The notes under the pieces are model-generated. The model was not told where the DNA came from. It saw only the letters and a list, made by a program, of their open reading frames with translations, and did not search any database. A stretch of 63,326 nt of DNA from a candidate division WOR-3 bacterium (GTDB lineage Bacteria; Hydrothermota; Tepidihabitantia; Tepidihabitantales; Tepidihabitantaceae), in NCBI GenBank assembly GCA_026397595.1, contig JAPLUO010000214.1, positions 1-63,326 on the forward strand, written 5' to 3'. Both the position numbers and the translations under genes were made by a program. Each line of letters begins with the position of its first letter. Position 1 is the stretch's first letter. This document shows, piece after piece, positions 38,745 to 57,382 of the stretch.

Positions 38745-39932
38745 CTACTGCCTCGGGTCGAAGATAGCACCGAGAAAAAGCACCGAGCCGGTGACGTCGT
38801 CCCGGATTGCACACAGGAACGGATGGTCGCAGATAAAGGAAAACCGTTCGACTTCGCCCGGCATCGCTGTGGCAAGCATCTTGACCACGGTGACGGCCGC
38901 AGCCTCGGTTCCCTCTTCGTTAACTTCGACGAATGTCTTGTGCAAGACGTCGCTGATTGCAGCGGTCGTGGGCGGCACGACCATCTCGGAGAAATCGGCC
39001 GCCGGTGTGAAAGCCTGCCCCATGCCGAGGAGTTTCAGGACCTTCACGAGGCTCTGCTCGAACTCAATCTTGAACCGTGGCAGCACGACCTCGCCCTTCT
39101 TCTCCCCGAACCCTTCGAAGAAGCCGGCAAGCTCTTCCGGGTTCAGCCGGTCAATGAGCATGCCGATCCCTTGCTGTTCCCTGGGCAGAAAGACGTACAT
39201 GTTCAGCCGGCCGTCGCCGTAGGGCAGCGCCACGGCCTGCATCAGCTCGTCCGACTTGTACCGGAACTCGGCGTCTCGCCGCATCATCTTTCGCTGGGAG
39301 GAGCTGCCCGCGGCCAGTTGGAACTCCCGCTCCGACGTAAGCTTTGGGTCGAACGCTGTGGTCCAACTACCTTTGAAGTAGATGGCGTTGATGAGGACCA
39401 TGATTTCGTCCGGCATGAGCTGGCTCACTGCCTGTTTGATTCGGCCCTCGGTGTTCTGACTGACCCAGTTGTTGATGACCGTCACCGCGTCGGGCCGGTT
39501 GAAATCGAGCGCTGTGACCGATGCGGAGTAGTACTCTCTGCAGTCGCTGGTGAATCGCTTCTGGAGTTTCGTTCCTTTGCGCAGCCAGAGCGAGTTGGCG
39601 ATGTCAAGCCGCACCTTCTTGTCTGCGCCGGTGAGCTGGTCTCGTAGTGCCTGGTTGCCGACACCAACCGCGACACGGTCCTGGCCGGCCAGGTTCAGCG
39701 CGCCGGCCATGGCGTCGAACGTCTGACTGCCGGCGCCGTGCATGGTCATCTGGAGCGCGAGCGCGATGCTCAAGGGCGATATGAACACGTTCTCCTGCGG
39801 CCTCGAGACCGTGAGGTAGCTGAAGATGTCGAGGCCGAGTTTGTTGTCGGCCCGGACGAGTTCGGTCATTGGGGCCGGGGCGGGCTGCGCGCCGGCCGAA
39901 CTGACGATGGCAATCGCGAGCAATAGACTCAT
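38745..39932 (-). CDS. serpin family protease inhibitor
   Basis: Full-length serpin pattern, including the hinge/RCL ...VNEEGTEAAAVT... and C-terminal ...DHPFLCAIRD..TGSVLFLGAIFDP. Confidence 0.9.
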   Translation of the reverse strand: MSLLLAIAIVSSAGAQPAPAPMTELVRADNKLGLDIFSYLTVSRPQENVFISPLSIALALQMTMHGAGSQTFDAMAGALNLAGQDRVAVGVGNQALRDQLTGADKKVRLDIANSLWLRKGTKLQKRFTSDCREYYSASVTALDFNRPDAVTVINNWVSQNTEGRIKQAVSQLMPDEIMVLINAIYFKGSWTTAFDPKLTSEREFQLAAGSSSQRKMMRRDAEFRYKSDELMQAVALPYGDGRLNMYVFLPREQQGIGMLIDRLNPEELAGFFEGFGEKKGEVVLPRFKIEFEQSLVKVLKLLGMGQAFTPAADFSEMVVPPTTAAISDVLHKTFVEVNEEGTEAAAVTVVKMLATAMPGEVERFSFICDHPFLCAIRDDVTGSVLFLGAIFDPRQ

Positions 39933-40151
39933 GGTTCCTCCTGGCTGCTACTCCGGTGGCTTGCTGCCTGTTCCGGCATCGGACGTTCAGCGTGATACGC
40001 CGGACGTCCCTTGAGACAGGCTAACCGGGCCGTGGTACTCTGTCAAAGACAACTTACCGCGGGCAGGCGGCGACTATTCCCGGACGGAGGGCTCTTGCGG
40101 TCGGCGGCAAGGGACGGAAAGAGAACAGAGATGGGGGGTCGAGCGGCGGCG

Positions 40152-40263
40152 CTACGCGAAGACGGAAAGCAAAGCCGATGCGACGACGGGTATCTCGTCA
40201 CGCCGGATAGTACGGAAGTCGAGCACGTACTCACCGTGTTCGGCCCGGCCGAACACCGACGGC
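40152..40263 (-). pseudogene. duplicated, frameshifted 3' fragment of selA
   Basis: The minus strand reads ...GRAEHGEYVLDFRTIRRDEIPVVASALLSVFA*. The SelA C-terminus reads ...GRVERGEYVLDFRTIRRDEIPIIAAALLSVFHQ*. DNA identity to 57574-57690 is roughly three quarters by eye. Confidence 0.75.
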
Positions 40264-40279
40264 CGGCAGCCTTGAGTCG

Positions 40280-40675
40280 CTACAGCTTGATGAGTCGGGC
40301 GACTTCCCGCAGCAGTACTTCGGGCTCGACCGGTTTCTCAAGAAACCCGTCGACCGGCAGGTAGTCGCCGTCGGCGTTGGGGTCGAGGTGGAAGCTGCTG
40401 GCACCGGACTCCTTGTTGACCGCAGTGATCATCAGTATCGGGATGCCGCTGAATCGCTCGTCACCCTTGATTTTCTGGCCGAGCCAGACTCCGTCGCCGA
40501 TTGTCTTCATCATCACATCGAGCAGGATGATGTCGGGCTTTTCTTTCTGCAACTGGGCCAGCGCCTCGTTGCCGTTTGCGGCCGTGCGTGTTTCGTAGCC
40601 GCCTGATTCAAGGATGATCTTCGTGGTCTCGACAAACTCCGGGTCGTCGTCAACCATGAGTACCCGTTTCGCCAC
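40280..40675 (-). CDS. single-domain response regulator (CheY-like receiver)
   Basis: VLMVDDDPEF..., phospho-acceptor DIILLDVMM, ...PILMITA.... Confidence 0.9.
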   Translation of the reverse strand: MAKRVLMVDDDPEFVETTKIILESGGYETRTAANGNEALAQLQKEKPDIILLDVMMKTIGDGVWLGQKIKGDERFSGIPILMITAVNKESGASSFHLDPNADGDYLPVDGFLEKPVEPEVLLREVARLIKL

Positions 40676-41648
40676 CGGCTCCTCCTTTCGTGTATTCCAA
40701 GAACCGCACAGTCACCGTGGTTCCCAGGCCGAATCTGCTGTTTACCGAGATGGTTCCCCGGTGGTCGTCAACAATCCGCTTTACCAGGGAGAGTCCCAGC
40801 CCCATTCCTTCCGCCTTACTCTCGGCCCGGGCCCGGCTGCCGCGGAAGAAGATGTCGAAGACCTTGGGCAGCTCCTCGTCGGGAATGCCGACCCCGGTGT
40901 CAACCACGCGGAACAGGAATGTGTCGCCGTCCTTTCTGGCTTCGACCTCCACGGTTCCGCCCGGGTCGGTGTACTTGATTGCGTTGTCAACGATGTTTAC
41001 AAAGACCCGCTTCAGCAGCTCCGGGCTGCCGAACAGGACCGGCAACTCGTCGCCCCACTGCCACGAGAATCGGACCTGGCGCTCAGCCGCATACTCTTTC
41101 ATCTCTTCGTAGACCGGGACCAGAATCCCCTTCATGTCGAGCGGTTCCTTCTTCAATTTCCCGGTGCTCTCTTCGAGCAGCGACAGCATCAGGAGGTCGT
41201 TCAAGAGGGCGATAACTTCCCTCACCCGATACCGGGCCCGGGTCAGGAGGTCCATCTGTTTCTCGGGGTTGCCCTTGAGATAGCCGTCGACGACAACGTT
41301 CAGGATGTTGTAGACTGCGGCCAGCGGCGCTTTGATTTCGTGGGAGACTTCGTAGGTGAACCGCGTCTTGGCGCGGGTGAGGTCCGCAATCTTGGAGTAA
41401 TTACGGCTGCATTCGACGCGCGCCTGCTTGGACCGGCTGCTCAGGTCCTGAAGATAGGAGATGAGCGAGTCGATTCTCGTCTCAAAGTCATCGTGCCAGT
41501 CCCGCATCCGCGCGAGATGGCCGGCGGTATCGTAGGGCTCGCATTTGCCGGGCTGGGCCCGCTTCGCGGCGTCGGGCTTCTTGAGGGGATCGGCGGACCG
41601 GGAAGTCGGCCCCGGCGCCTCAGTGTCCTGCTGGCGGTCGTTCTTCAT
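40650..41648 (-). CDS. cytoplasmic sensor histidine kinase (no TM segments; short coiled-coil N-terminus)
   Basis: H box SHEIKAPLAAV, N box VDNAIKYT, G boxes DTGVGIP and GMGLGLSLV. Confidence 0.9.
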   Translation of the reverse strand: MKNDRQQDTEAPGPTSRSADPLKKPDAAKRAQPGKCEPYDTAGHLARMRDWHDDFETRIDSLISYLQDLSSRSKQARVECSRNYSKIADLTRAKTRFTYEVSHEIKAPLAAVYNILNVVVDGYLKGNPEKQMDLLTRARYRVREVIALLNDLLMLSLLEESTGKLKKEPLDMKGILVPVYEEMKEYAAERQVRFSWQWGDELPVLFGSPELLKRVFVNIVDNAIKYTDPGGTVEVEARKDGDTFLFRVVDTGVGIPDEELPKVFDIFFRGSRARAESKAEGMGLGLSLVKRIVDDHRGTISVNSRFGLGTTVTVRFLEYTKGGAGGETGTHG

Positions 41649-41702
41649 CCGCGCTATATCTTCGCGGACATTCTCGGACTGTCAACTATTTCCGGGGCGG
41701 GG

Positions 41703-43166
41703 CTAGCCGGAGTTGCGCAACTCGCGGATGAGCGAGCCGTCCGGGCCGCGGAGACTGACGACCAGCGGCGGCCGGCCCAGCACGTGCGTCGCGCAGGCGA
41801 AGCACGGGTCATACGCCCGGAAGAACATCTCGACCATGTTCAGCAGCCCGTCGTCCGCCTTGCCGCCGTGGATGAGCTCTTTTGCCGCGTTGCGGATTGA
41901 CTGGCAGATTGCGCCCGCGTTGTTGGTGGTTGCGACAATCAGATTGACCTTCTTGATGAGCCGGTCCTCGGTCAGCCAGTAGTGGTGGTAGAGCGTGCCC
42001 CGCGCCGCCTCGACCACGCCGATTCCCTGCTCCTGCATCCGGTAGTCCATGTTCCGGATGTCGGTGCCGGTGATGTCCGGGTCCCGGGCAAGTTCGAGCG
42101 CGTGCTCGGCCGCGTACAGCAGTTCAATCAATCGAGCCCAGTGGAACGCCAGGGTCGAGTTGACCGGCTTGGTGCCGAAAGTATCGAACATCGTCTTGTA
42201 GTGCACGTTCGCCTTCGGGGTCGCCATGCCGTCAGCGGCATTGAGCCGGCCCAGCGGCCCGACCCGGTAGATGCCCGAGTCCATGCCGTCGGTCAGCCCC
42301 TTGAACCCGACCGCCTTGAGATATGCAATCTTCACGTAGGTCCACTCGTACACGTGCTCGCGGATGTGTTCGAGATAGTCCTTGCCTTCGAACTTCAGGA
42401 ACTCCTTGCCGGCCGGGTCGGTCACCCGCACATTGCCGTCGTAGAAGTTGACGTGGTTGTTTGAGTCCACCATGCCCATGTTGTAGAGGGCGAGGCCGAG
42501 ATTCGGGTTCAAGACGAGTGCCATGTAGTCTTTGTTGGCGAGCACCAAGTCGGCGAAGAGCTTGAGCGTGAACTCCGCGAACCCGACGCACGACTCGGCC
42601 ATCGTTTCGATTTCCTTCCGCTCGGATTCGTTGATGGGCTTGGTCTGGCCGCCAGGGATACCTGAGACCGGATGGGTCGGCTTGCCTCCGAGTATCTCGG
42701 TTATCTTCTGGCCAAAGGCCCGGTGTTTGATGACCTCTTTGGCGACGTCGAGCCCGACCTTCTCGATGACCCCGAGGATGTTGCGCTTGGCCTTGGGCGC
42801 GGTCGGCCCGACCACGAAGTCGGGCGCGGCCAGGAAGTAGAAGTGCAGGATGTGGTCGTAGATGAAGTAACCGGAATAGAGCAGGTCACGGAGCTTGAGC
42901 GCGGTTGGCGTGGGCACCACCCCGAACGCCATGTCCAGCGCCTTGGTCGAGGCATAGTGGTGCGCGACCGGGCAGACCCCGCAGATTCGGCTCGTAAGCT
43001 GGGGCATGTCCTCGGCCTTGCGGCCGACGCAGAACTGCTCGAACCCGCGCAGCTCGGGCACCTGGAAGTACGCGTCGTCAACGTCGCCCTTGTCGTTCAG
43101 GAATATCTCGATCTTGCCGTGGCCTTCAAGCCGGGTAATCGGGTCGATCGTTATCCGGGAACTCAC
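41703..43166 (-). CDS. mvhA: [NiFe] hydrogenase large subunit, group 3c (MvhA/VhuA-like)
   Basis: RLEGHG, RICGVCPVAHH and C-terminal DPCFACATH motifs. Start set at the GTG after GAGGAGG, overlapping the mvhG stop (GTGA). Confidence 0.9.
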   Translation of the reverse strand: MSSRITIDPITRLEGHGKIEIFLNDKGDVDDAYFQVPELRGFEQFCVGRKAEDMPQLTSRICGVCPVAHHYASTKALDMAFGVVPTPTALKLRDLLYSGYFIYDHILHFYFLAAPDFVVGPTAPKAKRNILGVIEKVGLDVAKEVIKHRAFGQKITEILGGKPTHPVSGIPGGQTKPINESERKEIETMAESCVGFAEFTLKLFADLVLANKDYMALVLNPNLGLALYNMGMVDSNNHVNFYDGNVRVTDPAGKEFLKFEGKDYLEHIREHVYEWTYVKIAYLKAVGFKGLTDGMDSGIYRVGPLGRLNAADGMATPKANVHYKTMFDTFGTKPVNSTLAFHWARLIELLYAAEHALELARDPDITGTDIRNMDYRMQEQGIGVVEAARGTLYHHYWLTEDRLIKKVNLIVATTNNAGAICQSIRNAAKELIHGGKADDGLLNMVEMFFRAYDPCFACATHVLGRPPLVVSLRGPDGSLIRELRNSG

Positions 43167-44140
43167 GGCTGCCTCCTCAGGCTGAGCGTAGCCTTGGCCA
43201 GGCTGTACATGTACAGTGTGCCGGCCGGGTCGGCCAGCTTGTTCACGAGCCCGGCGGTATCCTGTTCTGACAGGTCTTTCTCGTCGTCCACCCTCAGGAT
43301 GCCGCTCAGGGCCGAGATCATCTTCGCGCCCTGGTCTGAGACCTCGGGGCTCGGGCCCATGCACCCGGTGCAGGGAGAGTTGCCGTTGATGCACCGGGTC
43401 TGGCACCCGGCTCTCGTAGCCGGGCCCATGCAGACAATGCCCTGCTCAAGGAAACACTTTTCCCGGTCGGCCTGGACTTCCCAGGTGCGCTTGAGGTCGG
43501 GCATTTTCTTGGCCACGTGTTTATTCCGCTCGCACTCGTCGCACAGGGTCTTGGCCGGAGCCAGCACCGTTCCCTTGGGCGGGAGCTTGCCCGAGAATAT
43601 CGCGGTGACGGCATTGAGAATCAGCGGCACCGGCGGCGGGCACCCGGGCAGGTAGTAGTCAACGTCCACGACCTGGTCCAGGGCAAACACCCGGTCGTAG
43701 AACTCAGGCAGGTGCAGCTCGCCCTGCTTCACTTGTAGCCTCGTCTGCGGTCTGGTCCGGTTCGGGTTCTCAGTAGACGCGGTCGACTGGTAGGCGGTCT
43801 CGATGATGTCGGACTTCCGGCAGAGGTTGGCGAGGCCCGGAATCGAGCCCTGATGCGCACAGGCGCCGAACGCGACCAGCGCCTTCGACTTCCGTCGCAT
43901 CAGGTGCGCCATCTCCTCCTGCTCCGAATTCCGCACCGAGCCGTTGAAGAAGCAGACGTCCATGAAGCCGTCCGCCATGGCCCGGACGTCGTCGTACTTG
44001 AAGTCCATCGCTACCGGCCAGAGTACGATGTCGGCGTGTGCCACCACGTCGAGAACCGCCTCGTTGATGTCAAGGACCGCAATCTCGCAGCCGCCGCAGG
44101 ATGCTGCCCAGTAAAACCCGAACTTGAGCTTATCCGCCAT
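43163..44140 (-). CDS. mvhG: [NiFe] hydrogenase small subunit (MvhG-like)
   Basis: ...YWAASCGGCEIAVLD..., ...FGACAHQG..., plus distal FeS cysteine clusters. Confidence 0.9.
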   Translation of the reverse strand: MADKLKFGFYWAASCGGCEIAVLDINEAVLDVVAHADIVLWPVAMDFKYDDVRAMADGFMDVCFFNGSVRNSEQEEMAHLMRRKSKALVAFGACAHQGSIPGLANLCRKSDIIETAYQSTASTENPNRTRPQTRLQVKQGELHLPEFYDRVFALDQVVDVDYYLPGCPPPVPLILNAVTAIFSGKLPPKGTVLAPAKTLCDECERNKHVAKKMPDLKRTWEVQADREKCFLEQGIVCMGPATRAGCQTRCINGNSPCTGCMGPSPEVSDQGAKMISALSGILRVDDEKDLSEQDTAGLVNKLADPAGTLYMYSLAKATLSLRRQP

Positions 44141-44690
44141 CTCTCTGCTCCTGTCCGACCAGTCCGACGTGTCCGACCGGTCCGACTCCGGACAGCGGTC
44201 CCAGACTCCTTATCTGGTCGGTGTACTCCCGCACGACCTGGGCGAACTTCGCACCCTCAGCCGCGGAAATCCACTCGAGCCGGAGCCGTTCCTCTTCGAC
44301 GCCCAGTTGCTGCATCAGCCGCTTGAGCATCATGGTCCGCTTCAGGGTCTTGTAGTTGCCGCTCTGATAGTGGCAGTCGCCCGGATGGCAGCCACCGATG
44401 AAGACTCCGTCCGCGCCGTCGCGGAAAGCCTGGAGCACGAGCGCGGGGTCCACGGAACCCGAGCACATTACCCTTATCGCCCGCATGTTGGTCGGGTACT
44501 GCAGCCGGGAGGTGCCGGCCAGGTCTGCGCCGGCATACGTGCACCAGTTGCACAGGAATCCGACAATCCTCGGTTCAAACACCTGTCCGCTGTCCGTTGT
44601 CCGCACCTCTGACTGCTGACTTCCGACCTCCGACCTCTGACTTTTGACTTTTGACTTTTGACCCTTGACTTCTAACTTCTCCGTTCCCAC
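44130..44690 (-). CDS. mvhD: methyl-viologen-reducing hydrogenase delta subunit (MvhD/FlpD family)
   Basis: IVGFLCNWCTYAGADLAG...MCSGSV...GGCHPGDCHY. The ~35 N-terminal and ~20 C-terminal residues are low-complexity word DNA, so the true start is uncertain. Confidence 0.85.
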   Translation of the reverse strand: MGTEKLEVKGQKSKVKSQRSEVGSQQSEVRTTDSGQVFEPRIVGFLCNWCTYAGADLAGTSRLQYPTNMRAIRVMCSGSVDPALVLQAFRDGADGVFIGGCHPGDCHYQSGNYKTLKRTMMLKRLMQQLGVEEERLRLEWISAAEGAKFAQVVREYTDQIRSLGPLSGVGPVGHVGLVGQEQRDGG

Positions 44691-44693
44691 GAG

Positions 44694-47600
44694 TTACTCC
44701 TTCAGGGCCGGCTCCGGTGCCGCCCGCAAAGCCGCGCGCAGCATTGCCCGGGTTTGCCGGCTGTTGAACCCGAGGTGCGACATCGCGCCGGACGGGCAGG
44801 CTGCGGTGCAGTTGCCGCAGCCTTTGCACAGCGCCTCGTTGACGCGGGAAACGGTCTTGCCGTCTTTTTCAACCAGCCCGGGAGCACCGTACGCGCAGAC
44901 TGAGACGCAAATCCCGCACCCGGCGCAGACAAGGTCGTTCACGACTGCGGTAGTCGCTCCGGCCTCGTACGTGTCCTTGGCGAGAATCGTGGCTGCGCGC
45001 GCCGCAGCAGCCTTGGCCTGGGCCACGGTCTCCTGGATGTTCTTGGGCGAATGAGCCAGGCCGGCCAGAAACACGCCCTCGGTCGCGAAATCCACCGGCC
45101 GCAGTTTGACGTGCGCCTCGAGAAAGAACCCGTCCTCGTTCAGCGGGATTTTCAGCATCCTTGAGACCACGGCCGCGTCGTCGTGCGGGACAATCCCCGA
45201 GGCCAGCACCACGAGGTCCGGGTTGATGCTCAGGGCCGCGCCCAGGATGGAATCCCGGGCCTTGACCACGAGCTTGTCGCCGTCGCGCTCGACCGTCGGC
45301 TTCTCCTCCGGCTCGTAGCGCACGAACACCACGCCTAAGTCTCTGGCCCGCTGGTAGTACTCCTCAAGGAACCCGTACGTCCGGACGTCCCGGCAGAGCA
45401 CGTACACGTTCACCTTCGGGTTGAGCTCTTTCAGCTTCAGCGCGTTCTTCACCGCGTCCTGGCAGCAGACGCGCGAGCAGTACGGCCGTTCCTCGTCGCG
45501 CGAGCCCACGCACTGAATCATCACCACGTTCTTCAGCCGGGCAAGCTGGGTCGCGTCCGCGTCGGCAATCCGCTGCTCCAGTTCGAGCTGGGTGATTACC
45601 CGGTCGTCCTCGCCGTACAGGTACTCCTTGGGCCGCGCCTCCCTGGCTCCGGTCGCCACGACCACGACTCCGTGCTCTACTTCGGGTTCGTAGTCCCGGC
45701 CGGCGAGCTTGATCTTAGTCTTGTAGTTGCCGATGTACCCTTGGATGGACTCCGCGCTCGCGCCCTTATAGACCTTGATACGCGGGTGGGTCTCAACCCG
45801 GGCCATCAGCGAGCCGAGATAGGCCTTGACGTCCGCGCCTTCGAGCGAGTAGCGCAGGTTCCGGGCGTTGCCGCCGAGCTCTTTCTCCCGCTCGATGAGC
45901 GTCACCTCGAACCCCTGCTCGGCAATAGACAGGGCCGAAACCATGCCGGCCAGCCCGCCGCCCAGCACCAGCGCCTTCTGGGTTACCGGCAGGACCACGC
46001 TCTTCAGCGGTTCCAGCAGCCCGGCCTTGGCCACCGCCATCTCGACCAGGCTCTTGGCCTTGGCCGTTGCCCGCTCCGGCTCCCGCATGTGAGTCCAACT
46101 GCACTGGTCCCGGATGTTCGCCATCTCGAACAGGTGCGGGTTCAAGCCCGCCTCGCGCAGCGTCTCCTGGAACAGCGGCTCGTGGGTTCTGGGCGTGCAG
46201 GACGCCACGACCACGCGGTTCAGCTTGTGCTCCTCGATGGCGGTCTTGATCTTATGCTGCGTGTCCTGAGAACAGGTGAACAGGTTCTCGTCCACGTGGA
46301 CCACGTCCGGCAGCGTGCGGGCGAATTCGGCCACGCCCGGCACGTCAACGGTGCTCGCGATGTTGATGCCGCACCGGCACACGAACACGCCGATTCTAGG
46401 GCGCTCGCCGGCCACGCTGCGCTCCGGCGGATAGGTTTTCTGAACGACCTCGGTCCCGCGGGCGTCGTGCATAATCTCGGCCGCGCCGCTTGCCGCCGCC
46501 GATGCCTGGGTCACTGTCTCGGGAATGTCCTTGGGCGCGGCCGCGGCTCCGCACACGAAGATGCCGGGCCTCGTGGTCTCGGTCGGGCAGAACCGCGCGG
46601 TCTGAAAGAACCGGTGCCGGTTCAGCCTGATGCCCAGCTTGTCCGCGAGTTCCGGCGCATCTGCGGGCGGGCTGAACCCGACCGACAGCACGACCATGTC
46701 GAACTCCTCGGTCTTCATCCCGCCGTTGCCCTCATTGGCGTAGTGCACGACGAGGTCGCCCGACTCCGGCCTCTCGTCCACCTTTCCCACCCGGGCCCGG
46801 ACAAACCTGACCCCCTGCTCCTTCTGCGCGCGCTCATAGTACCGGTCAAAATCCTTGCCGTGCGCCCGGATGTCCATGTAGAAGATGGTCGGCTCGATGT
46901 CGCGCGCGTGCTCCTTGGCGATGACCGCCTCTTTGATGCCGTACATGCAGCAGACCGAAGAGCAGTAGCTGTTGCCGGCTTCGTCGTCTCGGGACCCGAC
47001 GCACTGGACCCAGGCAATCCGCTTCGGGGCTTTCCCGTCGCCCGGGCGCTGGAGATGCCCGCCGAACGGCCCGGACGCGGCCAGAATGCGCTCGAACTGA
47101 ATGCTGGTGACTACGTTGGGGTACATGCCGAACCCGAACTCGTATTTCAGCCGCGGATTGTACTTCTCCGCCCCGTTCGCGAGGATGATTGCGCCAACGC
47201 CGATTTCCCGGTGCTGCGCCGGCATCTCGTGCACGACGGCATGCGCCTCGCAGACCCGCTCGCACTCCAGGCACTCTGAGCAGACTCCGCACTCAAGGCA
47301 GCGGCTCGCCTCAGCCAGCGCTTGCTCTTCGCTCAAGCCGAGCTCGCACTCCGCGAAATTCCTGACCCGCTTGCCGGCCGCCAGCACCGGCATCTGCTGC
47401 CGGGGCTTCTTCTCAACGAACTCCGGCAGTTCCTTCTCCGGCAATTCCTCGTTCGTTCGTCGTTCCTCGTCCTTTGTTCTTCGTCCTTCGCGCAGGTCCT
47501 CGCCCGCCAGATAGCGGCTGATGGAAACCGCGGCCTCGTTCCCGTGATGCACCGCCTCGACAATCGAAGCCGGCCCGCTCACAATGTCCCCGCCCGCAAA

Positions 47601-49358
47601 GACACCCGGAACGCTCGTCTCCAGCGTCACCGGGTCCGCCTCAATCCGACCCCGGGTCTGCTTGAGCGTCTCAAGACCTTCGAGCTGCGACCGCTGGCCG
47701 ATGGCGACGATGACCGTGTCGGCCGGGATGGTCTCACTTGCGCACTCCTTGTCGTACACCGGTGCGAAGCTGCCGTCGTCCGAGTACACCGAGGTACAGC
47801 GCATTGTCTCCACGCCGGTAACCCGGCCGTTCTTCGTGACGATTCTCTTCGGCCCGAGGCAGCAGCGGACCACAACGCCTTCCTCCTCGGCCGCCTCAAT
47901 CTCCCAGGCGTGCGCCGGCATCCGGTCCCGCGAATCGAGGTTGCGCGTCTCCAGGCACACCATGCTCACCTCTTCCGCGCCCAGACGGGCTGCGGTCCGC
48001 GCGCAGTCTACTGCCACGTTCCCGCCGCCGATAACCACGACCTTCCGGCCCAATCCCTCAATCTTGGCCCCGCGCTTCACCTGTCGCAGGAAATCCAGAC
48101 CCAGCAGCACGCGTGTCTTTGTTCCTCGTTCCTCGTTCTTCGTTCTTCCGTCTTCTCCTGGCAGCTCGGCCCCGGCCTGGCATCCGACCGCGACATACAC
48201 GGCGTCGTGGCGCTTCTTGAGTTCGTCAATCGTCACGTCACGGCCGACTCTCGTTCCCCGCTTCAACTCAATCCCGGCCTCAAGAATCCGTTCAATGTCC
48301 TGCATCGCGCACGCTTTGGGGATGCGGTACTCAGGCAGGCAGGACACGAGCATCCCGCCCGGCTCGCCGGCCTCGTCATACACCGTCACCGCATAGCCCT
48401 GGTCGCGCAGCCGCAACGCGCAAGTGAGGCCCGAGGGCCCCGCGCCCACGACGCCGACCGTTTTCTTGCTGGTTATCTCCGCCTTGGCGCTCTTCGCGGC
48501 TTCCCCTCCGCTCCTCTCCGCCCCTTCGTCATTTCCCCTTTCCCCTTCTCCCTTGGCACTCTTGGCGTCCTTGGCGGTTTCCCCTCCGGCGTTCTCCGTT
48601 CCTCGTTCTTCGTACTCCCTGTCCGCGATGAACCGCTTAATCGCCGCAATCGCTATCGGCTCATCGTACTCACCGCGCCGGCAGTTGGCCTCGCACGGAT
48701 GATGGCATACCCGGCCGCATATCGAGACGAACGGATTGTGCTTCCGGACCAGTTCGTACGCTTCGTGGTACTTCTTCTCACGCACCAGCGCCACATAGCC
48801 CTGGGCGTGAACCCCGGCCGGGCACGACACCTGGCACGCGGGCCGCGCCTTCTTGTCAATGGAGAACGCACTCGGGTAGGCCTGCGCGAAGAGGCGGTAT
48901 GCCGCCCGCCGGTCCACAAGCTGCTCGTCGAACTTCGACGGCAGCTTGACCGGGCAGACCTTCTCGCACTCCCCACACCCGGTGCACTTCGCCGGGTCGA
49001 CGAACCGCGGTCGCTTCAGCACCTTGACCCGGAAGTCGCCGGCCTCGCCGGTTACCGCTTCGATTTCCGCGCCCGACAACAGTTCGATGTTAAAGTGCCG
49101 GCCGCACTCCACCAGTTTCGGGGACATGATGCACATCGCGCAGTCATTGGTCGGAAACGTCTTGTCGAGCTGGGCCATGATGCCGCCGATTGCCGGCCCG
49201 CGCTCGAGCAGATAGACCTTGAACCCCGCGTTCGCCAGGTCGAGCGACGACTGGATGCCCGCGATTCCCGCGCCGACGACCAGCACCGCTCCGGGCTTGC
49301 CGCCTCGGCCTGACCTCTCCGTTCCGCCGGCCGTCATTGGAACTTGCTCCTTCGTCAT
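44694..49358 (-). CDS. HdrL-like giant fusion: an HdrA module split by a GltD/NfnB-like NAD(P)H oxidoreductase insert, followed by a second HdrA module
   Basis: The first HdrA module has an FAD fold (VVGAGIAGIQ) and TFPTNDCAMCI. The GltD-like insert has SCPAG...ICGRVCHHPCE.NCRRG and VVGAGPSGL...GGGNVAVDCART...AGGD. The first module continues with QCVGSRD...YCSSVCC. The second module has GVFVCRCG...ASCTPRTHE...QCVGSRD...CSRVCC and terminal ferredoxin motifs. Confidence 0.85.
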   Translation of the reverse strand: MTKEQVPMTAGGTERSGRGGKPGAVLVVGAGIAGIQSSLDLANAGFKVYLLERGPAIGGIMAQLDKTFPTNDCAMCIMSPKLVECGRHFNIELLSGAEIEAVTGEAGDFRVKVLKRPRFVDPAKCTGCGECEKVCPVKLPSKFDEQLVDRRAAYRLFAQAYPSAFSIDKKARPACQVSCPAGVHAQGYVALVREKKYHEAYELVRKHNPFVSICGRVCHHPCEANCRRGEYDEPIAIAAIKRFIADREYEERGTENAGGETAKDAKSAKGEGERGNDEGAERSGGEAAKSAKAEITSKKTVGVVGAGPSGLTCALRLRDQGYAVTVYDEAGEPGGMLVSCLPEYRIPKACAMQDIERILEAGIELKRGTRVGRDVTIDELKKRHDAVYVAVGCQAGAELPGEDGRTKNEERGTKTRVLLGLDFLRQVKRGAKIEGLGRKVVVIGGGNVAVDCARTAARLGAEEVSMVCLETRNLDSRDRMPAHAWEIEAAEEEGVVVRCCLGPKRIVTKNGRVTGVETMRCTSVYSDDGSFAPVYDKECASETIPADTVIVAIGQRSQLEGLETLKQTRGRIEADPVTLETSVPGVFAGGDIVSGPASIVEAVHHGNEAAVSISRYLAGEDLREGRRTKDEERRTNEELPEKELPEFVEKKPRQQMPVLAAGKRVRNFAECELGLSEEQALAEASRCLECGVCSECLECERVCEAHAVVHEMPAQHREIGVGAIILANGAEKYNPRLKYEFGFGMYPNVVTSIQFERILAASGPFGGHLQRPGDGKAPKRIAWVQCVGSRDDEAGNSYCSSVCCMYGIKEAVIAKEHARDIEPTIFYMDIRAHGKDFDRYYERAQKEQGVRFVRARVGKVDERPESGDLVVHYANEGNGGMKTEEFDMVVLSVGFSPPADAPELADKLGIRLNRHRFFQTARFCPTETTRPGIFVCGAAAAPKDIPETVTQASAAASGAAEIMHDARGTEVVQKTYPPERSVAGERPRIGVFVCRCGINIASTVDVPGVAEFARTLPDVVHVDENLFTCSQDTQHKIKTAIEEHKLNRVVVASCTPRTHEPLFQETLREAGLNPHLFEMANIRDQCSWTHMREPERATAKAKSLVEMAVAKAGLLEPLKSVVLPVTQKALVLGGGLAGMVSALSIAEQGFEVTLIEREKELGGNARNLRYSLEGADVKAYLGSLMARVETHPRIKVYKGASAESIQGYIGNYKTKIKLAGRDYEPEVEHGVVVVATGAREARPKEYLYGEDDRVITQLELEQRIADADATQLARLKNVVMIQCVGSRDEERPYCSRVCCQDAVKNALKLKELNPKVNVYVLCRDVRTYGFLEEYYQRARDLGVVFVRYEPEEKPTVERDGDKLVVKARDSILGAALSINPDLVVLASGIVPHDDAAVVSRMLKIPLNEDGFFLEAHVKLRPVDFATEGVFLAGLAHSPKNIQETVAQAKAAAARAATILAKDTYEAGATTAVVNDLVCAGCGICVSVCAYGAPGLVEKDGKTVSRVNEALCKGCGNCTAACPSGAMSHLGFNSRQTRAMLRAALRAAPEPALKE

Positions 49359-49368
49359 TGCCGCGCCC

Positions 49369-50505
49369 CTACGCCCTCAACTGGCTGAGCCGCTTCTCAC
49401 CGCGGCTCCGCTTCTTCTCGGCCGCGGCCTCAATCAGCCCCAGGATTCTGGCTCGCTCCGCCCGCTCGGCGTCGCGGCCCTTGCCCCGACCCTCTCCCCG
49501 GCGCTCCTCGATGTAGCCGCGGCGCACGGCTTCGGTGAAGACCCGCTTCCCGCCGATGCTCCGTATCAAAGTCGTGGTGTAGCCGTCGGGCGAGCCAAGG
49601 CCGCCGACCGCGATGTCCGCGTACTCGTTCGCGAAATCCACGCACGCCAGACACGCCGGCCGGGCAATCGTCTCGATCTCGTCCAGCGGGATGTGCATGG
49701 TGATGCCCGACTTCATCTTCAGGACGAAGTCGTCTTTGATGTTCACCTTGGCCACGTCCCTCATGTCCAACTGGTGTTTCCGGGCGAACTCTCTTTCCAT
49801 CAACTCGTTCAGGGCAAAACTCTGCATGCAGAACAGGCCCACGGCAAACGTGACCACGTCGGCCGGCAGGATTCGCAGCACCTGCATCTTCCGAATCGAC
49901 TCGATCTGGCACGGAGTCCCGACCACGGCCAGTTTGATGACCGACTTGGGCGCAAGCTCCCTGATGGTCGGGATAATCGAAACATAGGTCGAGTATTCGG
50001 ACCCGACGTGCTCAAGATGGCTGGTTTCCGCCCAGTGGGAACCGGCGGCGCGCAGCAGCGCCTCGCGCGAGGTCGCGACCACGGCCCGGCGGTCGAACAG
50101 CCCGGTCCGCTCTGATACGATGGCACCGTCGATCAGCCCGGACTCAAGCATGAACAAAAGCAGCCCGGTGACCACGCCGCCGTCGGTTGCGGCCTTCTGG
50201 ACCTCCGGGTCGGTCGCCCGGGCCGAGAGTACGTCTTGGCACAGGCCGACCGGCTCGCTCCAGCCGAACTTCTCCCGGACTTCCTCTTTCAGCGGGTGGG
50301 TCTGCGGGCAGATGAGGTAGCAGATGCCGCACTCCAGGCACTTGTCCCGGTTGGCATAGCGCGGGAATCCATCCTTGCCCATCTCCAGCGCGCCGATGCG
50401 GTCCGCGGAGCAGAACGATACGCACCCGCCGCAGCGATTGCAGAGCTTCCGCTCCACCACTTCCTTGAGCAGGGTGTCGAAACTCGCCTTCTCCTTCAGT
50501 TTCAT
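49369..50505 (-). CDS. FrhB/FdhB/FpoF-family protein (F420 hydrogenase/dehydrogenase beta-like FeS flavoprotein)
   Basis: N-terminal 2x[4Fe-4S] motifs (CNRCGGCVSFC..., CLECGICYLICP). ...ATDGGVVTGLL... and ...VVGTPCQI... family motifs. Confidence 0.75.
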   Translation of the reverse strand: MKLKEKASFDTLLKEVVERKLCNRCGGCVSFCSADRIGALEMGKDGFPRYANRDKCLECGICYLICPQTHPLKEEVREKFGWSEPVGLCQDVLSARATDPEVQKAATDGGVVTGLLLFMLESGLIDGAIVSERTGLFDRRAVVATSREALLRAAGSHWAETSHLEHVGSEYSTYVSIIPTIRELAPKSVIKLAVVGTPCQIESIRKMQVLRILPADVVTFAVGLFCMQSFALNELMEREFARKHQLDMRDVAKVNIKDDFVLKMKSGITMHIPLDEIETIARPACLACVDFANEYADIAVGGLGSPDGYTTTLIRSIGGKRVFTEAVRRGYIEERRGEGRGKGRDAERAERARILGLIEAAAEKKRSRGEKRLSQLRA

Positions 50506-50512
50506 CGTCGGC

Positions 50513-50983
50513 TCACGCCTTGGCGGCAATCCGCTTGTCCACCATCGCCTTGATCTTCTCGCCCTGCTTCTTTTCCGGGTTCAGCGCGTACTTGATGATG
50601 TTGCAGCGCAGGTCCTGGGTAAACCGGTCCAGGTCGTCAATCATCGCAAGCCGTTCCTTGGGCGCGTGGCCTTCCTTGACCGCCAGCTTGCGCAGCACCT
50701 CCATCACGTCGGCGAACTTGACGTTCTGCGGGCAGCGGGCATAGCAGGTGTAGCAGCGGGCGCACAGCCAGATGGTGTCCGAGGACAACACCTGCTTGCG
50801 CAGGCCGAGCACGGCCATCCGGATGATTTTGCGCGGGTCGTACTCCTCCATCACCTCCGCGACCGGGCAACTGGCGGTGCAGGTCCCGCAGGAGAAGCAG
50901 CGCTTGAAATTCTCGGCTCCCGGCTGGCTCGCAATCTCGTGTTTGAACTGGGAGTCGGATTCACTGAGGTTGATTTCTTCCAT
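50513..50983 (-). CDS. hdrC: HdrC-like 2x[4Fe-4S] protein
   Basis: CFSCGTCTASCP and CARCYTCYARCP motifs in an HdrC-sized protein. Confidence 0.7.
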   Translation of the reverse strand: MEEINLSESDSQFKHEIASQPGAENFKRCFSCGTCTASCPVAEVMEEYDPRKIIRMAVLGLRKQVLSSDTIWLCARCYTCYARCPQNVKFADVMEVLRKLAVKEGHAPKERLAMIDDLDRFTQDLRCNIIKYALNPEKKQGEKIKAMVDKRIAAKA

Positions 50984-50995
50984 TTTGGCTCCTCT

Positions 50996-51826
50996 CTAGA
51001 CCCCTTCCGGCAGGCTGGCCAGCTCGGCATAGGAGAATACCGGGCCGTCGGTGCAGACGTACCTGGGTCCGATGTTGCACCGGCCGCACTTGCCCACGCC
51101 ACACTTCATTCTGCGCTCGAGCGAGGTGTAAATCCGGTCGCCGGGGAACCCGAGGTCCAGCAGCACCGGCATTGTGTACTTGATCATCACCGGCGGGCCG
51201 CAGACTACTGCCCAGCCGTCTTTCGGGCTGGGCCTGACCTTCTCGGTCACGGTCGGCACGAATCCGACCGCCTTGTCCCAGCCTGCGGCCGGCTGGTCAA
51301 TCGTCAGGTGGACCTCGACGTCGCCGCGCTTTCCCCATTCGGCGAGCTCGTCGCGGTACAGGAGCAGTCCGGGCCGGCGCGCGCCGTAGATGACCGTGAT
51401 GTCGCCGTAGTCGCTGCGGTTTGCCAGCAGGTAGGCGGCCAGAGACCGGAGCGTGGTGAAGGCGAACCCGCCGCCGACCAGCACCACGTTCTGGCCCTTG
51501 AACTTCTCGACCGGGTAGTGATTGCCCAGGGGCCCGCGCAGGCCGAGTTCCTCGCCTTCCTTGAGATAGTGCAGCGCGGTCGTGACGGTCCCGACCCGGT
51601 TGACCGTGAACCGGAGGGACTCCCTTTCGGTCGGCGAGGACGCGATGCCGAACGCCGCCTCGCCCTTGCCCAGTATCGAAAGCTGGCAGAACTGGCCCGG
51701 CAGGTACTCGAACGGCTCGGTATCGTCCCCGAACGCAAGGTCGAACGTCCGCAGGGTCCGGTCGTCGGACTCGACCCGGACGTTCTGTACTCTCACCGGA
51801 ATCGGGACGTACGAATTATCCGGCAT
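50996..51826 (-). CDS. FAD/NAD(P)-binding oxidoreductase with a C-terminal 2Fe-2S motif (sulfhydrogenase gamma HydG / FlxA / AsrB-like)
   Basis: ...PGQFCQLS..., ...LVGGGFAFTTL..., ...CGPPVM..., C-terminal CGVGKCGRC. Confidence 0.8.
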   Translation of the reverse strand: MPDNSYVPIPVRVQNVRVESDDRTLRTFDLAFGDDTEPFEYLPGQFCQLSILGKGEAAFGIASSPTERESLRFTVNRVGTVTTALHYLKEGEELGLRGPLGNHYPVEKFKGQNVVLVGGGFAFTTLRSLAAYLLANRSDYGDITVIYGARRPGLLLYRDELAEWGKRGDVEVHLTIDQPAAGWDKAVGFVPTVTEKVRPSPKDGWAVVCGPPVMIKYTMPVLLDLGFPGDRIYTSLERRMKCGVGKCGRCNIGPRYVCTDGPVFSYAELASLPEGV

Positions 51827-52919
51827 GCCTGACGTCCTTCGTTCCCGCCTCTTGGCGTTCTTGGCGGCCTTGGCGGTTCTCCTGCTTTCCGGACTTGCCT
51901 TCGACTTTCACCCGCTCAAGCACCAGCCGCACGTCGAAATCTGCCGGGCACAGCCGGATGCACCGGCCGCAGCCGACGCAGGCCGTCTCTCCGAAATTGT
52001 CTACGAAGTAACTGAACTTGTGCATGACGCGCTGCCGGATTCGCTCTTTGGCACTCGGCCTGGGGTTGTGCCCGGAGGCCTCCTTCGTGAACAGGGCCGA
52101 CTGGCAGGTGTCCCAGATTCGCACCCGCCGTCCCTGCATGGTGCCGGGCGCGGTCTCGTCCTGGACGTCGAAGCAGTGGCAGGTCGGGCACAGATAGGCG
52201 CAGGCTCCGCACGACAGGCAGCCAAGCGCGACCTCGTCCCAGAGTGCGCTGTCCCAGAGCGTTGCCAGTGCGGCCTTGACCCCGGAGAAATCGGCCGCCG
52301 GCGCCAGCGATTCCAGTGCCTTGCCGCGCACCTGTCCGGCCTTGTCCAGGTCGGCCTGACTCGGCCGCTGCACCTGGGATTTGTACGCCGCCTTGAGGAA
52401 TCGCTCGCCCTTGTCCGTGCACGACTCCGCGAGGAACGCATCGCCGATGTCGGTGAGCATGATGTCCGACCCCTGGGAGTCGAACGGGCCCAGGTTCATC
52501 GAGTTGCAGAAGCAGGTCTCAAGCGGCGTGCCGCACCCGAGGCCGATTATCAGGCTGTCGTCATGCCGCCGCTGCCATAGCGAGTCCCGGTACTTGCCCG
52601 TGCCGAACACCTTGTCCAGCAGGAGCAGGCTTCGGGCATCGCAGGGCCGGACCCCGAGAACAGCCGTCGGTTTGTCCCTGCCCGGCGGTGGCTCGCTCGT
52701 GGTTCCGTCATAGGACAAGAGCATTTCGGTCTGAGGGAAAAACGCCGCCTTTACCGGCCCGTCAAGCGCCGCGTCGAGCGCAAGCTCGTCCGCGCTCTTG
52801 ACCTCGCGCAGCACGGTCGCGCCGTCAACGTCAACCGGCCCGAACAACCGGTAGCGCGACGTGAGCGCCGAAACCAGTTGGTCCATGTCCTGCTTGGCGA
52901 TTCTGAGCGACGAGCTCAC
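51816..52919 (-). CDS. FeS protein (sulfhydrogenase beta HydB / FlxB / AsrA-like)
   Basis: ...VRPCDARSL..., CLSCGACAYLCPTCHCF, CVGCGRCIRLCP. The C-terminal ~30 aa are low-complexity word DNA. Confidence 0.75.
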   Translation of the reverse strand: MSSSLRIAKQDMDQLVSALTSRYRLFGPVDVDGATVLREVKSADELALDAALDGPVKAAFFPQTEMLLSYDGTTSEPPPGRDKPTAVLGVRPCDARSLLLLDKVFGTGKYRDSLWQRRHDDSLIIGLGCGTPLETCFCNSMNLGPFDSQGSDIMLTDIGDAFLAESCTDKGERFLKAAYKSQVQRPSQADLDKAGQVRGKALESLAPAADFSGVKAALATLWDSALWDEVALGCLSCGACAYLCPTCHCFDVQDETAPGTMQGRRVRIWDTCQSALFTKEASGHNPRPSAKERIRQRVMHKFSYFVDNFGETACVGCGRCIRLCPADFDVRLVLERVKVEGKSGKQENRQGRQERQEAGTKDVRHAG

Positions 52920-53851
52920 AGTATGAACTCCTGCTTATCTTCTTCGCCGTAGGTGGCCAAGGCCGGTGTCGCTTCCATGCTCAGGCCAGCGGTGTACCCG
53001 AAACGTTCGCGGACTTCCTGCTCAATCCGTTTGTTCAGCAGCCCGAGCCGGACCCCGAGCGGGCAGGCGCGCTCGCACGCGCCGCAGTCAACGCACCGGC
53101 CCGCGGTGTGCAGGGCGCGCACGAGGTGGAACAGGGTGGTGTCCGGCCGCTCCGCGCTCTTGCCGAACCACTGCGGGTTCGTCTGGTCAACAAAGCACTC
53201 TTCGCAGTAGCACATCGGGCAGGCGTTCCGGCAGGCATAGCAGCGGATGCACTTGGCCAGCTCGCGCTCGAACCACGCCCACCGGTCTGCCGGTGCCAGC
53301 TTCTCGAACTCAGCGACCCCGGCGAATTCGTCACCGGTTCTGGCCTCAGCCGGCTCGCCGACGAATACGTCATACACCGGCGGATTCGGATACCGGCACC
53401 GTCGGCACGAGTCTGACAGAACGCCGGACGCTTCACGCTCGACGCTCGACGCCTCCTGCACAGGGCGTCTGGCGTCGGACGGATGGCGTCGTGCGTCAAC
53501 CACTCCGCCACAGCCGACGCCGATAATCACGACCTGGTCGCGCTTAAGCTGGCCCTCGGCAACCTGCTGCACCAAGGCCCGGCCGTCGCAGCCTTTGGCA
53601 ACAACCGCGACTCTGGTGCCCGGCTGCGCGGCCCGGAGCGCCTTGCGCACGAAGGGGACCAGGCTGAGGCCGCAGGTATTGTCGAAAATCAGGCGGTCCA
53701 CGTCTTTCTCGTCCGTGATGACCGCGGGCCGGGTGCGCCGCCCGGACGAACCGCGCTCATATCCGATGACGAGGTCGGCCTTCTTCTCCTTCAGGAGTCT
53801 GCCGGCCGTCTCTTTGAGTTGCTGCCCGGTATCGGGCGCGCCGCGCTTCAC
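52916..53851 (-). CDS. FeS protein associated with MvhD/HdrA (FlxC-like)
   Basis: CIRCYACRNACPMCYC and CVDCGACERACP motifs. Start set at the GTG that overlaps the upstream mvhD-like stop (GTGA). Confidence 0.65.
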   Translation of the reverse strand: MKRGAPDTGQQLKETAGRLLKEKKADLVIGYERGSSGRRTRPAVITDEKDVDRLIFDNTCGLSLVPFVRKALRAAQPGTRVAVVAKGCDGRALVQQVAEGQLKRDQVVIIGVGCGGVVDARRHPSDARRPVQEASSVEREASGVLSDSCRRCRYPNPPVYDVFVGEPAEARTGDEFAGVAEFEKLAPADRWAWFERELAKCIRCYACRNACPMCYCEECFVDQTNPQWFGKSAERPDTTLFHLVRALHTAGRCVDCGACERACPLGVRLGLLNKRIEQEVRERFGYTAGLSMEATPALATYGEEDKQEFIL

Positions 53852-54279
53852 TGCCCGCCCCCTGCGGCCTTGACCAGCCGCTTGGCCGGCCCCAGCTTCT
53901 TCACGTCGTCCGTGACCCGGGCGACGACCTGCGCGAACTTCTCGCCCTCGCCCGCAGAAACCCACGCGAACTGAACCCGGCCCGGCTCGACGCCGATGAA
54001 CTCCAGCGCCGTCTTCAGTGTCGCGAATTTCCGGCGTGCGATGTAGTTGCCCGAAATGTAATGGCAGTCGCCCGGATGACAGCCCGATACCAGCACGCCG
54101 TCAAAGCCGTTCTCAAGGCTCTTCAGGACGAAGAGCGGGCTCACCCGGCCCGAGCAGGGAACACGCACGACCCGGACGTTGGGCGGGTACTGGATCCTCG
54201 ACACCCCGGCCAGGTCCGCGCCCGCATACGAGCACCAGTTGCAGAGGAAAGCGACAATCTTCGGTTCCCAGTCGTTCAT
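53848..54279 (-). CDS. second MvhD/FlxD-family protein
   Basis: IVAFLCNWCSYAGADLAG...PCSGRV...SGCHPGDCHY. Confidence 0.85.
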   Translation of the reverse strand: MNDWEPKIVAFLCNWCSYAGADLAGVSRIQYPPNVRVVRVPCSGRVSPLFVLKSLENGFDGVLVSGCHPGDCHYISGNYIARRKFATLKTALEFIGVEPGRVQFAWVSAGEGEKFAQVVARVTDDVKKLGPAKRLVKAAGGGQ

Positions 54280-57347: not shown

Positions 57348-57353
57348 GACACC

Positions 57354-57382
57354 AGATTAGCAACCCCTCAACCGCATGTCAA
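57354..57382 (-). promoter_or_regulatory. sigma70-like promoter abutting the hdrA start codon (a leaderless transcript is plausible)
   Basis: On the minus strand: TTGACA (57382-57377), 17-nt spacer, TAATCT (57359-57354), then 6 nt to the ATG at 57347. No Shine-Dalgarno sequence is visible. Confidence 0.45.

Follow-up and report, generated by a model that had tools for sequence, protein, structure and literature searches.

Insertions with long duplications of their target were described by Nobusato et al. (2000) and Furuta et al. (2010; PMC2853133), and the mechanism behind them is still unsolved. In the survey by Furuta et al. such cases were recognized by an insert of less than 20 kb, a relative with the empty site, direct repeats of more than 30 bp and the absence of mobility genes (PMC2853133), and the cases described carry restriction-modification genes as cargo, mostly between near-identical repeats (PMC2853133). 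Displacement of gene 3' ends at type VI secretion system (T6SS) effector-immunity, Rhs and contact-dependent inhibition (CDI) loci has been explained by a model of homology-facilitated illegitimate recombination (HFIR; Kirchberger et al., 2017; PMC5361080). In Escherichia coli, prophage e14 and phage 21 lie in icd, with a 163-bp pseudo-icd (PMC6379469), and Dehalococcoides carries tandem genomic islands at ssrA as well as cis-mobilizable elements (CIMEs; PMC3146451). The locus analysed here is selA, with a 17.4-kb insert and a displaced selA 3' end, on a stretch of 63,326 nt from a candidate division WOR-3 bacterium (contig JAPLUO010000214.1, assembly GCA_026397595.1), which is called the window throughout. 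It belongs to G000, a metagenome-assembled genome (MAG) of 4.7 Mb in 494 contigs, 94% complete and 6.6% contaminated.

Downstream of a response-regulator gene in the window, positions 40158-40265 (minus strand) aligned without gaps to the selA 3' end at 57580-57687 (minus strand), with 78% identity over 108 nt, and the matched selA stretch corresponds to the final 108 nt ahead of the last two selA codons. When the selA 3' end was compared by blastn with the whole 4.7-Mb genome, as had been proposed together with the original prediction, only selA itself and this fragment matched (E 2.6e-18), and no third copy was found in G000. At the protein level (tblastn), the selA tail and the fragment were 83% identical across 36 aa (E 7e-14). 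The presence of a genuine second selA 3' end after the response-regulator stop, as originally predicted, was therefore confirmed, whereas the frameshift placed further upstream in it was not: the ungapped, in-frame alignment rules out a frameshift within the fragment, the homology just ends at codon R448, and no homology to selA 5' of this codon was left in the alignments. From R448 the fragment can be translated in a single frame as RPSVFGRAEHGEYVLDFRTIRRDEIPVVASALLSVFA, which is 13 codons beyond what had been seen before, up to its own TAG at 40152-40154, one codon ahead of the selA stop position. Its first base lies 14 nt beyond the response-regulator stop (40280-40282).

The search for selA took in 40 relatives, and mcsB was found to adjoin selA in every relative whose upstream flank was retrieved, so that a rearrangement that had moved selA, one of the explanations first offered, is refuted by a synteny conserved across the family. 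An empty site was found in the closest relative, G001 (L043), and in the near-identical metagenome contig L064, in which selA is followed by a spacer, a serpin gene and a beta-propeller gene, the latter two being 93% and 90% identical in amino acids to their counterparts in the window. In a three-way alignment, the selA tail, stop and spacer of G001 were collinear with the fragment, spacer and serpin gene of the window, and the current selA tail of the window ran into an AT-rich spacer and hdrA. In addition, the fragment and the G001 tail have the same unusual ...EH...VFA end and the same stop position, and the working tail of the window (...ER...VFHQ) resembles those of other congeners. Because of this collinearity and of the shared ...EH...VFA form, the fragment is recognized as the native selA end in its native place, and the 17.4-kb insert has brought a replacement end. 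In this way selA stays intact, with the insert supplying codons 448-485 and the old codons 448-483 remaining as a scar ahead of the serpin gene. A tail copied to the response-regulator gene, as initially supposed, is not borne out, since the empty-site allele places the fragment in its native position.

The features of the locus are listed below in the direction of transcription.

57688-59028, minus strand: selA body (PF03841, E 8.5e-148)
57571-57687, minus strand: current, functional selA tail, codons 448-485 plus stop; proximal copy of the long target duplication
57348-57570, minus strand: left end of the insert; spacer rich in AT, in which a promoter-like TTGACA...TAATCT precedes hdrA
40280-57347, minus strand: cargo, 13 co-oriented genes (Pfam scans), as follows
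54276-57347, minus strand: HdrA-like gene, first of the cargo in transcription order
53848-54279, minus strand: MvhD gene, second in the cargo
between this MvhD gene and the FrhB-like gene, minus strand: genes for two Fe-S proteins, an FAD/NAD oxidoreductase and a ferredoxin (Pfam)
49369-50529, minus strand: gene for an FrhB-like protein (Pfam)
44694-49358, minus strand: gene for an HdrA/GltD-like fusion of 1554 aa (Pfam)
between the fusion gene and the kinase gene, minus strand: second MvhD gene, then genes for the small and large [NiFe]-hydrogenase subunits (Pfam)
40650-41648, minus strand: histidine kinase gene (Pfam)
40280-40675, minus strand: response-regulator gene, last cargo gene
40266-40279, minus strand: right junction of the insert, 14-nt spacer from the response-regulator stop to the displaced tail
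40152-40265, minus strand: displaced native selA 3' end, codons 448-483 plus TAG; distal copy of the long target duplication
39933-40151, minus strand: native downstream spacer, which follows the selA stop directly in the empty-site allele
38745-39932, minus strand: serpin gene, native neighbour of selA, then a PKD/beta-propeller gene

The insert covers 17.4 kb, from 57687 down to 40266, and contains the replacement selA tail, the promoter region, 11 Hdr/Flx/FrhB/[NiFe]-hydrogenase genes and the genes for the histidine kinase and the response regulator. Whole selA occupies 57571-59028 (minus strand), and the identity of its product was supported by PF03841 (E 8.5e-148) over residues 103-467 plus an N-terminal PF12390 match (E 1.8e-07). 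The 13 cargo genes are packed tightly, and all of them could be assigned by Pfam to redox, hydrogenase or signalling families. The GC content is unremarkable across the locus except at 57348-57570, where it drops to 0.53. The two tail alleles of G000 end in ...AAALLSVFHQ (current) and ...ASALLSVFA (displaced), and their 24 differences are of all kinds, chiefly third-position C/T and G/A. A diversity-generating retroelement was ruled out as their source, as the differences are not confined to adenine and no reverse transcriptase was found among the neighbouring ORFs.

Within the insert, two paralogous HdrA-MvhD modules were noticed (44130-47500 and 53848-57347; 72-76% identical in nucleotides, with a constant offset of about 9.6 kb), one of which is fused into the 1554-aa HdrA/GltD-like protein. 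An origin of the fragment from a segmental duplication together with these modules was ruled out, because the offsets differ (9.6 vs 17.4 kb), the copies are not collinear and the empty site explains the fragment. At the other end of selA, the first 40 or so codons (KGKGSGIRGQGSGEVRSQKLEARSQS..., at 58900-59030) are built of heptamer-type genome repeats (TTCTGAC-like), and the same repeats make up the intergenic region 60150-60300. Both regions are hypervariable, with 59-68% identity between relatives that are otherwise 95% identical.

Nine further displaced selA tails were found: two in G006, one each in G002, G008 and G010, one on contig C211 of G001 and one on each of the metagenome contigs L069, L078 and L075, which came from a pattern scan of metagenome collections. 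In G006, selA is followed by the same 13-gene block in the same order, with an orphan tail right behind the response-regulator stop. After this first orphan tail, G006 carries a PD40 beta-propeller gene and then the second orphan tail. In G002, selA precedes a 186-aa ORF, and a PD40 gene comes next, followed by an orphan tail that is decayed, with a stop and an indel. The preceding genes are those for a histidine kinase and a response regulator in L069, an HdrA-like gene in L078, and selA with a mazEF-like pair on the opposite strand in L075. The orphan tails of G008 and G010 lie at contig ends, that of G008 behind a tail copy of a xer gene. Close orthologues of the FrhB-like gene were found only in G000 and G006 among the 31 family genomes searched.

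In the G000 fragment, as in eight of the nine further orphans, the tail starts, exactly or within 3 nt, at CGGCCGCCGGTGTTCGG (codon 448), which is part of the imperfect palindrome CCGGCCG-N8-CGGCCGG, irrespective of the preceding sequence. The longest identical run between tails (15 nt; CGGTGTTCGGCCGGG) is also located at this boundary. Frame and stop are kept in the boundary-sharing orphan tails except that of G002. As the orphan on G001:C211 begins near codon 373, the boundary cannot be regarded as absolutely fixed. At the left end, G000 and G006 have a conserved spacer, CAAGCTTGACATGC..TTGAGGG included. At the right end, the junction formed by the response-regulator stop, the spacer and CGGCCG (TAGCGACTC..GC, then CGGCCG) is common to G000, G006 and L069, despite the fact that each continues with a different 3' part of the tail and different downstream DNA.

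Some further observations were made at these sites. The orphan on G001:C211 (L039; 689-1042) is a longer fragment with an in-frame TAG that ends in ...AQALLAAFA; it is preceded by a promoter-like CTTGACATGC..., which resembles the promoter upstream of hdrA, and followed by the gene for a 284-aa secreted protein, whose homologue in L075 likewise follows an orphan selA tail. A spacer motif, cgcccgacccaacaca(t/c)c, was seen after the stop of several selA tails, working and orphan, of different lineages, in L075 (5029 downward), L034 (after 9913) and L069 (after 830). This motif is probably the ancestral selA downstream spacer of the genus.

The way in which filled and empty alleles differ was followed along the alignment of G000 with L064. 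The flanking genes are 91-98% identical, and within selA the divergence from the empty-site relative rises from about 5% to about 20% near 58350, with 27 mismatches in 500 nt (58849-58350) vs 130 in 662 nt (58349-57688). The low identity (77-79%) persists through the fragment and about 75-100 nt of the spacer, after which 91-97% identity is found again. What sets filled and empty alleles apart is thus not a clean cut at codon 448; it is a replacement tract of roughly 0.9 kb, from mid-selA to about 75-100 nt beyond the tail. Such a tract spanning the insertion point is the signature of a RecA-type exchange with flanking homology, and argues for host homologous recombination as the process that moves the insert.

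An identity matrix with 14 other selA sequences identified the 3' half of the G001 gene as the outlier, with 75-81% identity to everything. The G001 gene is a mosaic, with a 5' half 95% identical to that of G000, and the 3' half of the G000 gene keeps the relationships of its 5' half (87% and then 89% to G009, for example). Import of a selA 3' half by G000 together with the cassette was therefore ruled out. As it is only 75-81% identical to every congener sampled, the 3' half of G001 selA must stem from an unsampled, more distant lineage. The most economical account is that, in the G001 line, a filled allele gave way to a foreign empty one; otherwise, two separate events would have taken place.

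Exchange between species was also suggested by synonymous divergence (dS). Between G000 and G006, the 13 cassette genes had dS values of 0.25-0.60, compared with 0.63-0.83 for selA, mcsB, a UvrB/C-motif gene, lolD and lolC, so that the cassette value is about half that of the flanking genes, and the cassette appears to have spread horizontally. In G006, a single mismatch separates the working tail from the first orphan over the initial 86 nt, beyond which the two diverge sharply, a pattern that reads as gene conversion.

Displaced gene ends are not limited to selA. A self-comparison of G000, followed by inspection of the individual alignments, revealed at least 10 further loci at which a second copy of a gene's final 60-280 nt lies 0.3-4 kb downstream on the same strand, the homology stopping at the stop codon or no more than 11 nt from it. 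The cargo at these loci is accessory, comprising VapBC, a solitary antitoxin-like ORF, ATPases of AAA/OLD-like type, acetyltransferases, lipoproteins and a T9SS protein, and the various tail duplications showed no common sequence motif at their 5' boundaries. That the fragment is akin to the other gene tails found after stop codons in this genome, and that they point to a common mechanism, had been proposed at first and was borne out. A genome-wide count of downstream vs upstream tail copies was too noisy, due to spurious ORFs and internal repeats, and was not used as a statistic. The following loci of G000 carry tail copies.

C136:3050-3946, gene-tail copy
C223:6948-10420, gene-tail copy
C294:16252-17445, gene-tail copy
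C399:1760-6213, gene-tail copy
C431:3085-3968, gene-tail copy
C442:13059-14071, gene-tail copy
C125:2107-3193, gene-tail copy
C185:1953-5043, gene-tail copy
C211:5870-7461, gene-tail copy

In these loci the copies lie 0.7-4 kb downstream, and among the cargo are an OLD/SMC-like ATPase accompanied by an AlbA_2-like protein, as well as acetyltransferases, lipoproteins and unknown proteins. The tails at C185 and C211 belong to a restriction-gene tail family that is also present in the window at 3.9-15.2 kb. Different states of one site were found at the C118 locus (G000:C118:14087-16302; L088), which is empty in G010, holds one VapBC cassette in G001 and shows three tail copies in G000. This VapBC cassette (80-95% nucleotide identity between copies) was found in at least four targets and five congeners (L088, L096-L102); in at least three targets besides C118, a duplicated piece of the respective target, of 61, 65 and 116 nt, encloses it on both sides, and the cassette ends vary. 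On contig C86 of G008 (L037; 8311-10344), a gene for a Xer-like tyrosine recombinase (8311-9402) has its last 135 nt or so duplicated at about 10087-10225, with two toxin-antitoxin-like genes on the minus strand in between (9513-9758 and 9725-10048), and the selA orphan tail begins 5 nt past the duplicated xer stop.

The machinery that could have moved the insert was searched for in the element and in the genomes. Pfam scans revealed no recombinase or transposase among the 13 cargo ORFs, and no match to PF00589, PF00239 or PF07508 on the contig of the window. Two Xer-like genes with PF00589 were found in each of G000, G002, G005, G006 and G008, plus a C-terminal fragment in G008, and none of the PF00589 matches in these five genomes was near selA. 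Serine recombinases (PF00239, PF07508) were not found in G000, G001, G006 or G008, and G002 has a single, unrelated large serine recombinase on another contig. For lack of a mobility gene, capture of the 3' end by a mobile element, one of the mechanisms suggested earlier, was not upheld. The searches also showed that ComEC and DprA are present and Ku is absent.

Three other explanations of the fragment itself were weighed against displacement of the native end. An assembly chimera, in which a co-assembled contig switches strains inside selA and again inside the tail, would fit the fragmentation and contamination of this MAG (494 contigs, 6.6%) and the mosaic identity to G001 along the contig. 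However, the junction between response regulator and fragment recurs in two other assemblies (G006, L069), in the form of the response-regulator stop, 13-14 nt and CGGCCG..., and the exact matches between tail alleles reach at most about 15-26 nt, below usual assembly k-mers. Moreover, the fragment carries P450S and V455A at positions invariant across all other tails, and a functional tail from a co-occurring strain would not have substitutions at invariant SelA residues; a second selA 3' half is absent from the bin, and the identity matrix makes G001, and not G000, the carrier of the odd allele. Given the junction in independent assemblies and the P450S/V455A changes, mis-assembly of the junction appears very unlikely, and a chimera was given next to no weight. 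Barely more plausible is the original version, in which the selA tail was copied behind the response-regulator stop by 3'-end capture or template switching, or selA had moved away. A start just 14 nt past the stop of another gene and comparable tail copies behind stop codons elsewhere in the genome speak for it, but the empty-site allele puts the fragment contiguous with the native spacer and serpin gene, the mcsB-selA synteny is kept in all relatives, and the response regulator is merely the last gene of the inserted block, in G006 and L069 as well. A function of the fragment per se, be it as a peptide of 38 residues, as an extension of the response regulator by a -1 frameshift, or as a terminator or structured RNA, is scarcely credible. 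It would agree with the retained open frame and stop, with roughly 4 non-synonymous vs 6 synonymous changes on the branch of the fragment, and with a frame that is -1 relative to that of the response regulator in G000 and G006 alike. But unrelated genes precede the orphan tail in other genomes, start codon and ribosome-binding context are lacking, invariant SelA residues are altered, and the copy in G002 is disrupted, with a stop as well as an indel. Neither an RNA fold better than that of shuffled sequences (z -0.10), nor an Rfam match, nor a terminator-like site was found in the fragment. A structured RNA, a terminator and a frameshift fusion to the response regulator were thus all ruled out as its identity, and the displaced native tail at 40152-40265 is probably a scar without function.

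Regarding the origin of the insert, the native selA end was displaced by the 17.4-kb block, which was probably founded by HFIR and moved by host homologous recombination. In the founding event, DNA would be taken up from a donor whose cluster followed selA and anchored by homologous pairing within selA, and its far end would be joined illegitimately to the GC-rich palindrome CCGGCCG-N8-CGGCCGG at codon 448; such an event would constitute HFIR. Template switching, also proposed at first, is possible for the founding event, but nothing specifically favours it. In the spread, the displaced tail would serve as a portable right-hand homology arm, so that RecA recombination with a left crossover in selA and a right one in the tail could move the cassette between species whatever lies downstream, and the same route could stack cassettes into arrays or remove them via an empty allele. 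Under HFIR the 3' edge of the repeat would fall at the stop codon because the homology between donor and recipient ends at the gene end. This edge, the lack of a recombinase and the variable duplication length would all follow from HFIR, as would a foreign proximal and a native distal tail and replacement tracts in the target. With the orphan tail as right-hand homology, spread, stacking, conversion and loss would be accounted for. The presence of ComEC and DprA and the absence of Ku weakly favour a mechanism based on DNA uptake.

Several points weigh against this account. The G000 fragment and eight of the nine other tails share one boundary at a 7-bp palindrome with 15 nt of identity, which is reminiscent of a recombinase core, and HFIR with a shared boundary requires a breakage or microhomology hotspot or a single founding event. 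No donor with a native adjacency of selA and the cluster and without a displaced tail was found. The occurrence of VapBC in at least four targets needs a donor for each target or an additional primary mobility. ComEC and DprA are widespread and are not proof of competence. Besides, MAG binning often loses integrase-bearing mobile elements, and the genomes analysed here are MAGs.

The same boundary is the main point in favour of site-specific integration, in which non-autonomous elements, similar to CIMEs or to e14 in icd, would carry a mimic of the selA tail as attP, and a recombinase acting in trans, unbinned or since lost, would act at a core at codon 448, with the fragment as attR. In addition to a 5' boundary shared by the fragment and eight of nine tails irrespective of the upstream context, this explanation has in its favour the imperfect palindrome and the longest identical run at that position, tandem arrays like the accretion of ssrA islands (PMC3146451), and a replacement-tail logic as in e14/icd (PMC6379469). 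Nevertheless, no integrase was found in any cassette, the genomes searched have two Xer-like genes each (plus the G008 fragment) and serine recombinases are missing in four of five, the filled/empty pair differs by the 0.9-kb replacement tract instead of a clean excision, and one selA fragment begins at codon ~373. Tail duplications of 60-280 nt are seen in more than 10 other G000 genes and share no boundary motif, and the VapBC cassette, whose ends are not constant, has another target duplicated wherever it sits; site-specific integration is therefore regarded as rather unlikely. A transposition-like event with a long target-site duplication, in which staggered nicks 108 nt apart are followed by ligation of a foreign fragment and filling of the gaps, would accommodate the range of duplication lengths between loci (60-280 nt) and the same VapBC cargo in various targets, each of them duplicated, and target duplications that are long and differ in length have been described in the literature, where double-strand breakage is suggested (PMC2853133). 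In that case both tail copies would stem from one native sequence, but the two selA tails are different alleles (78%) with many synonymous differences, the proximal one being like those of other species (AAALL...F-H/Q-Q/H type) and the distal one like the empty-site allele. Ku was not found, and staggered nicks do not predict a 3' edge at the stop codon, which is seen at nearly every locus. This event is accordingly held to be highly improbable, and displacement of the native end through HFIR and host recombination remains the preferred explanation.

It is tempting, if still tentative, to consider displaced gene ends as a recombinase-free gene-capture system of this lineage, possibly of many prokaryotes, a kind of 'integron without an integrase'. 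If so, an orphan tail would make a gene a docking site at which host recombination inserts, stacks, exchanges and deletes cassettes across species, from 0.3-kb antitoxin genes to a 17-kb hydrogenase/Hdr operon, and gene order may differ between species. The selA locus itself illustrates the way in which an entire 13-gene energy-conservation operon with its regulators can pass between species of an uncultured genus without mobile-element machinery, its target, selA, a gene of an essential pathway, being left undamaged by the insert. With empty, one-cassette and two-cassette states, at least four cargo types and an allelic-replacement tract, the selA locus is among the more informative natural data sets for the long-target-duplication mechanism, and its states speak for an initial one-sided homologous recombination, with ordinary recombination at the orphan tail coming afterwards. 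In practical terms, orphan gene tails are easy markers of recently acquired accessory DNA in MAGs, invisible to island finders based on integrases, and orphan selA tails should not be annotated as pseudogenes of a second selA.

When compared with integron arrays, the selA locus is alike in its one-directional promoterless or toxin-antitoxin cassettes, in the copies of one repeat and in the fixed docking site. Unlike them, it has no IntI, attI or attC hairpin with R''/R' cores, the docking gene's coding tail makes up its repeat, and its cassettes reach up to 17 kb. An integron was ruled out on the grounds that only Xer-like integrases were found, the repeat is coding and its fold is no better than shuffles. 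As in the ssrA islands of Dehalococcoides, respiratory or metabolic operons are stacked behind one conserved gene and bounded by its 3'-end repeat, and some of those islands also lack an integrase; however, their repeats are of 20 bp and many carry the serine recombinase DsiB, whereas the selA repeats are 108 bp of coding sequence. With e14/icd the locus shares an insert in the last codons of a housekeeping gene that supplies a mostly conservative alternative end and leaves the original as a pseudo-tail on the far side. However, e14 has its own integrase and excises precisely, whereas the selA insert has no integrase and is flanked by a homologous-recombination tract; among these incomplete MAGs, only Xer-like genes were found when a recombinase assignable to such an element was looked for in the element or the genome.

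The 3'-end displacements of T6SS, Rhs and CDI loci follow a like logic: with its anchor in the conserved 5' part of a gene, a module introduces another 3' end and downstream genes, the old 3' end is orphaned downstream, and arrays form by repeated events without a dedicated recombinase. There, the ends encode different toxins and displacement is adaptive, whereas the 38 residues encoded by the two selA ends belong to a housekeeping enzyme and are nearly the same, and the cargo is the selected part. With the long target duplications, the locus has in common that repeat length varies between loci, that some repeats overlap gene 3' ends and that no integrase or transposase is present. An empty relative with aligned flanks was found (G001/L064; flanks 91-98% identical), both 108-nt copies, longer than 30 bp, align to the single G001 tail, and the insert has 17.4 kb, less than 20 kb, and no mobility genes. 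Restriction-modification cargo, which belongs to the definition of the Furuta survey and not to the mechanism, is replaced here by Hdr/Flx/FrhB/[NiFe]-hydrogenase genes with a histidine kinase and a response regulator. The differences are this 13-gene energy-metabolism cargo with a two-component system, repeats that are different alleles (78%), and the reuse of the selA site for arrays, with displaced tails of the same start (eight of the nine others) across several species. The selA insert therefore belongs to a known but poorly understood kind of insertion, to which it adds a 17-kb energy-metabolism cargo, one selA boundary reused across species, and a pair of filled and empty alleles that documents homologous recombination.

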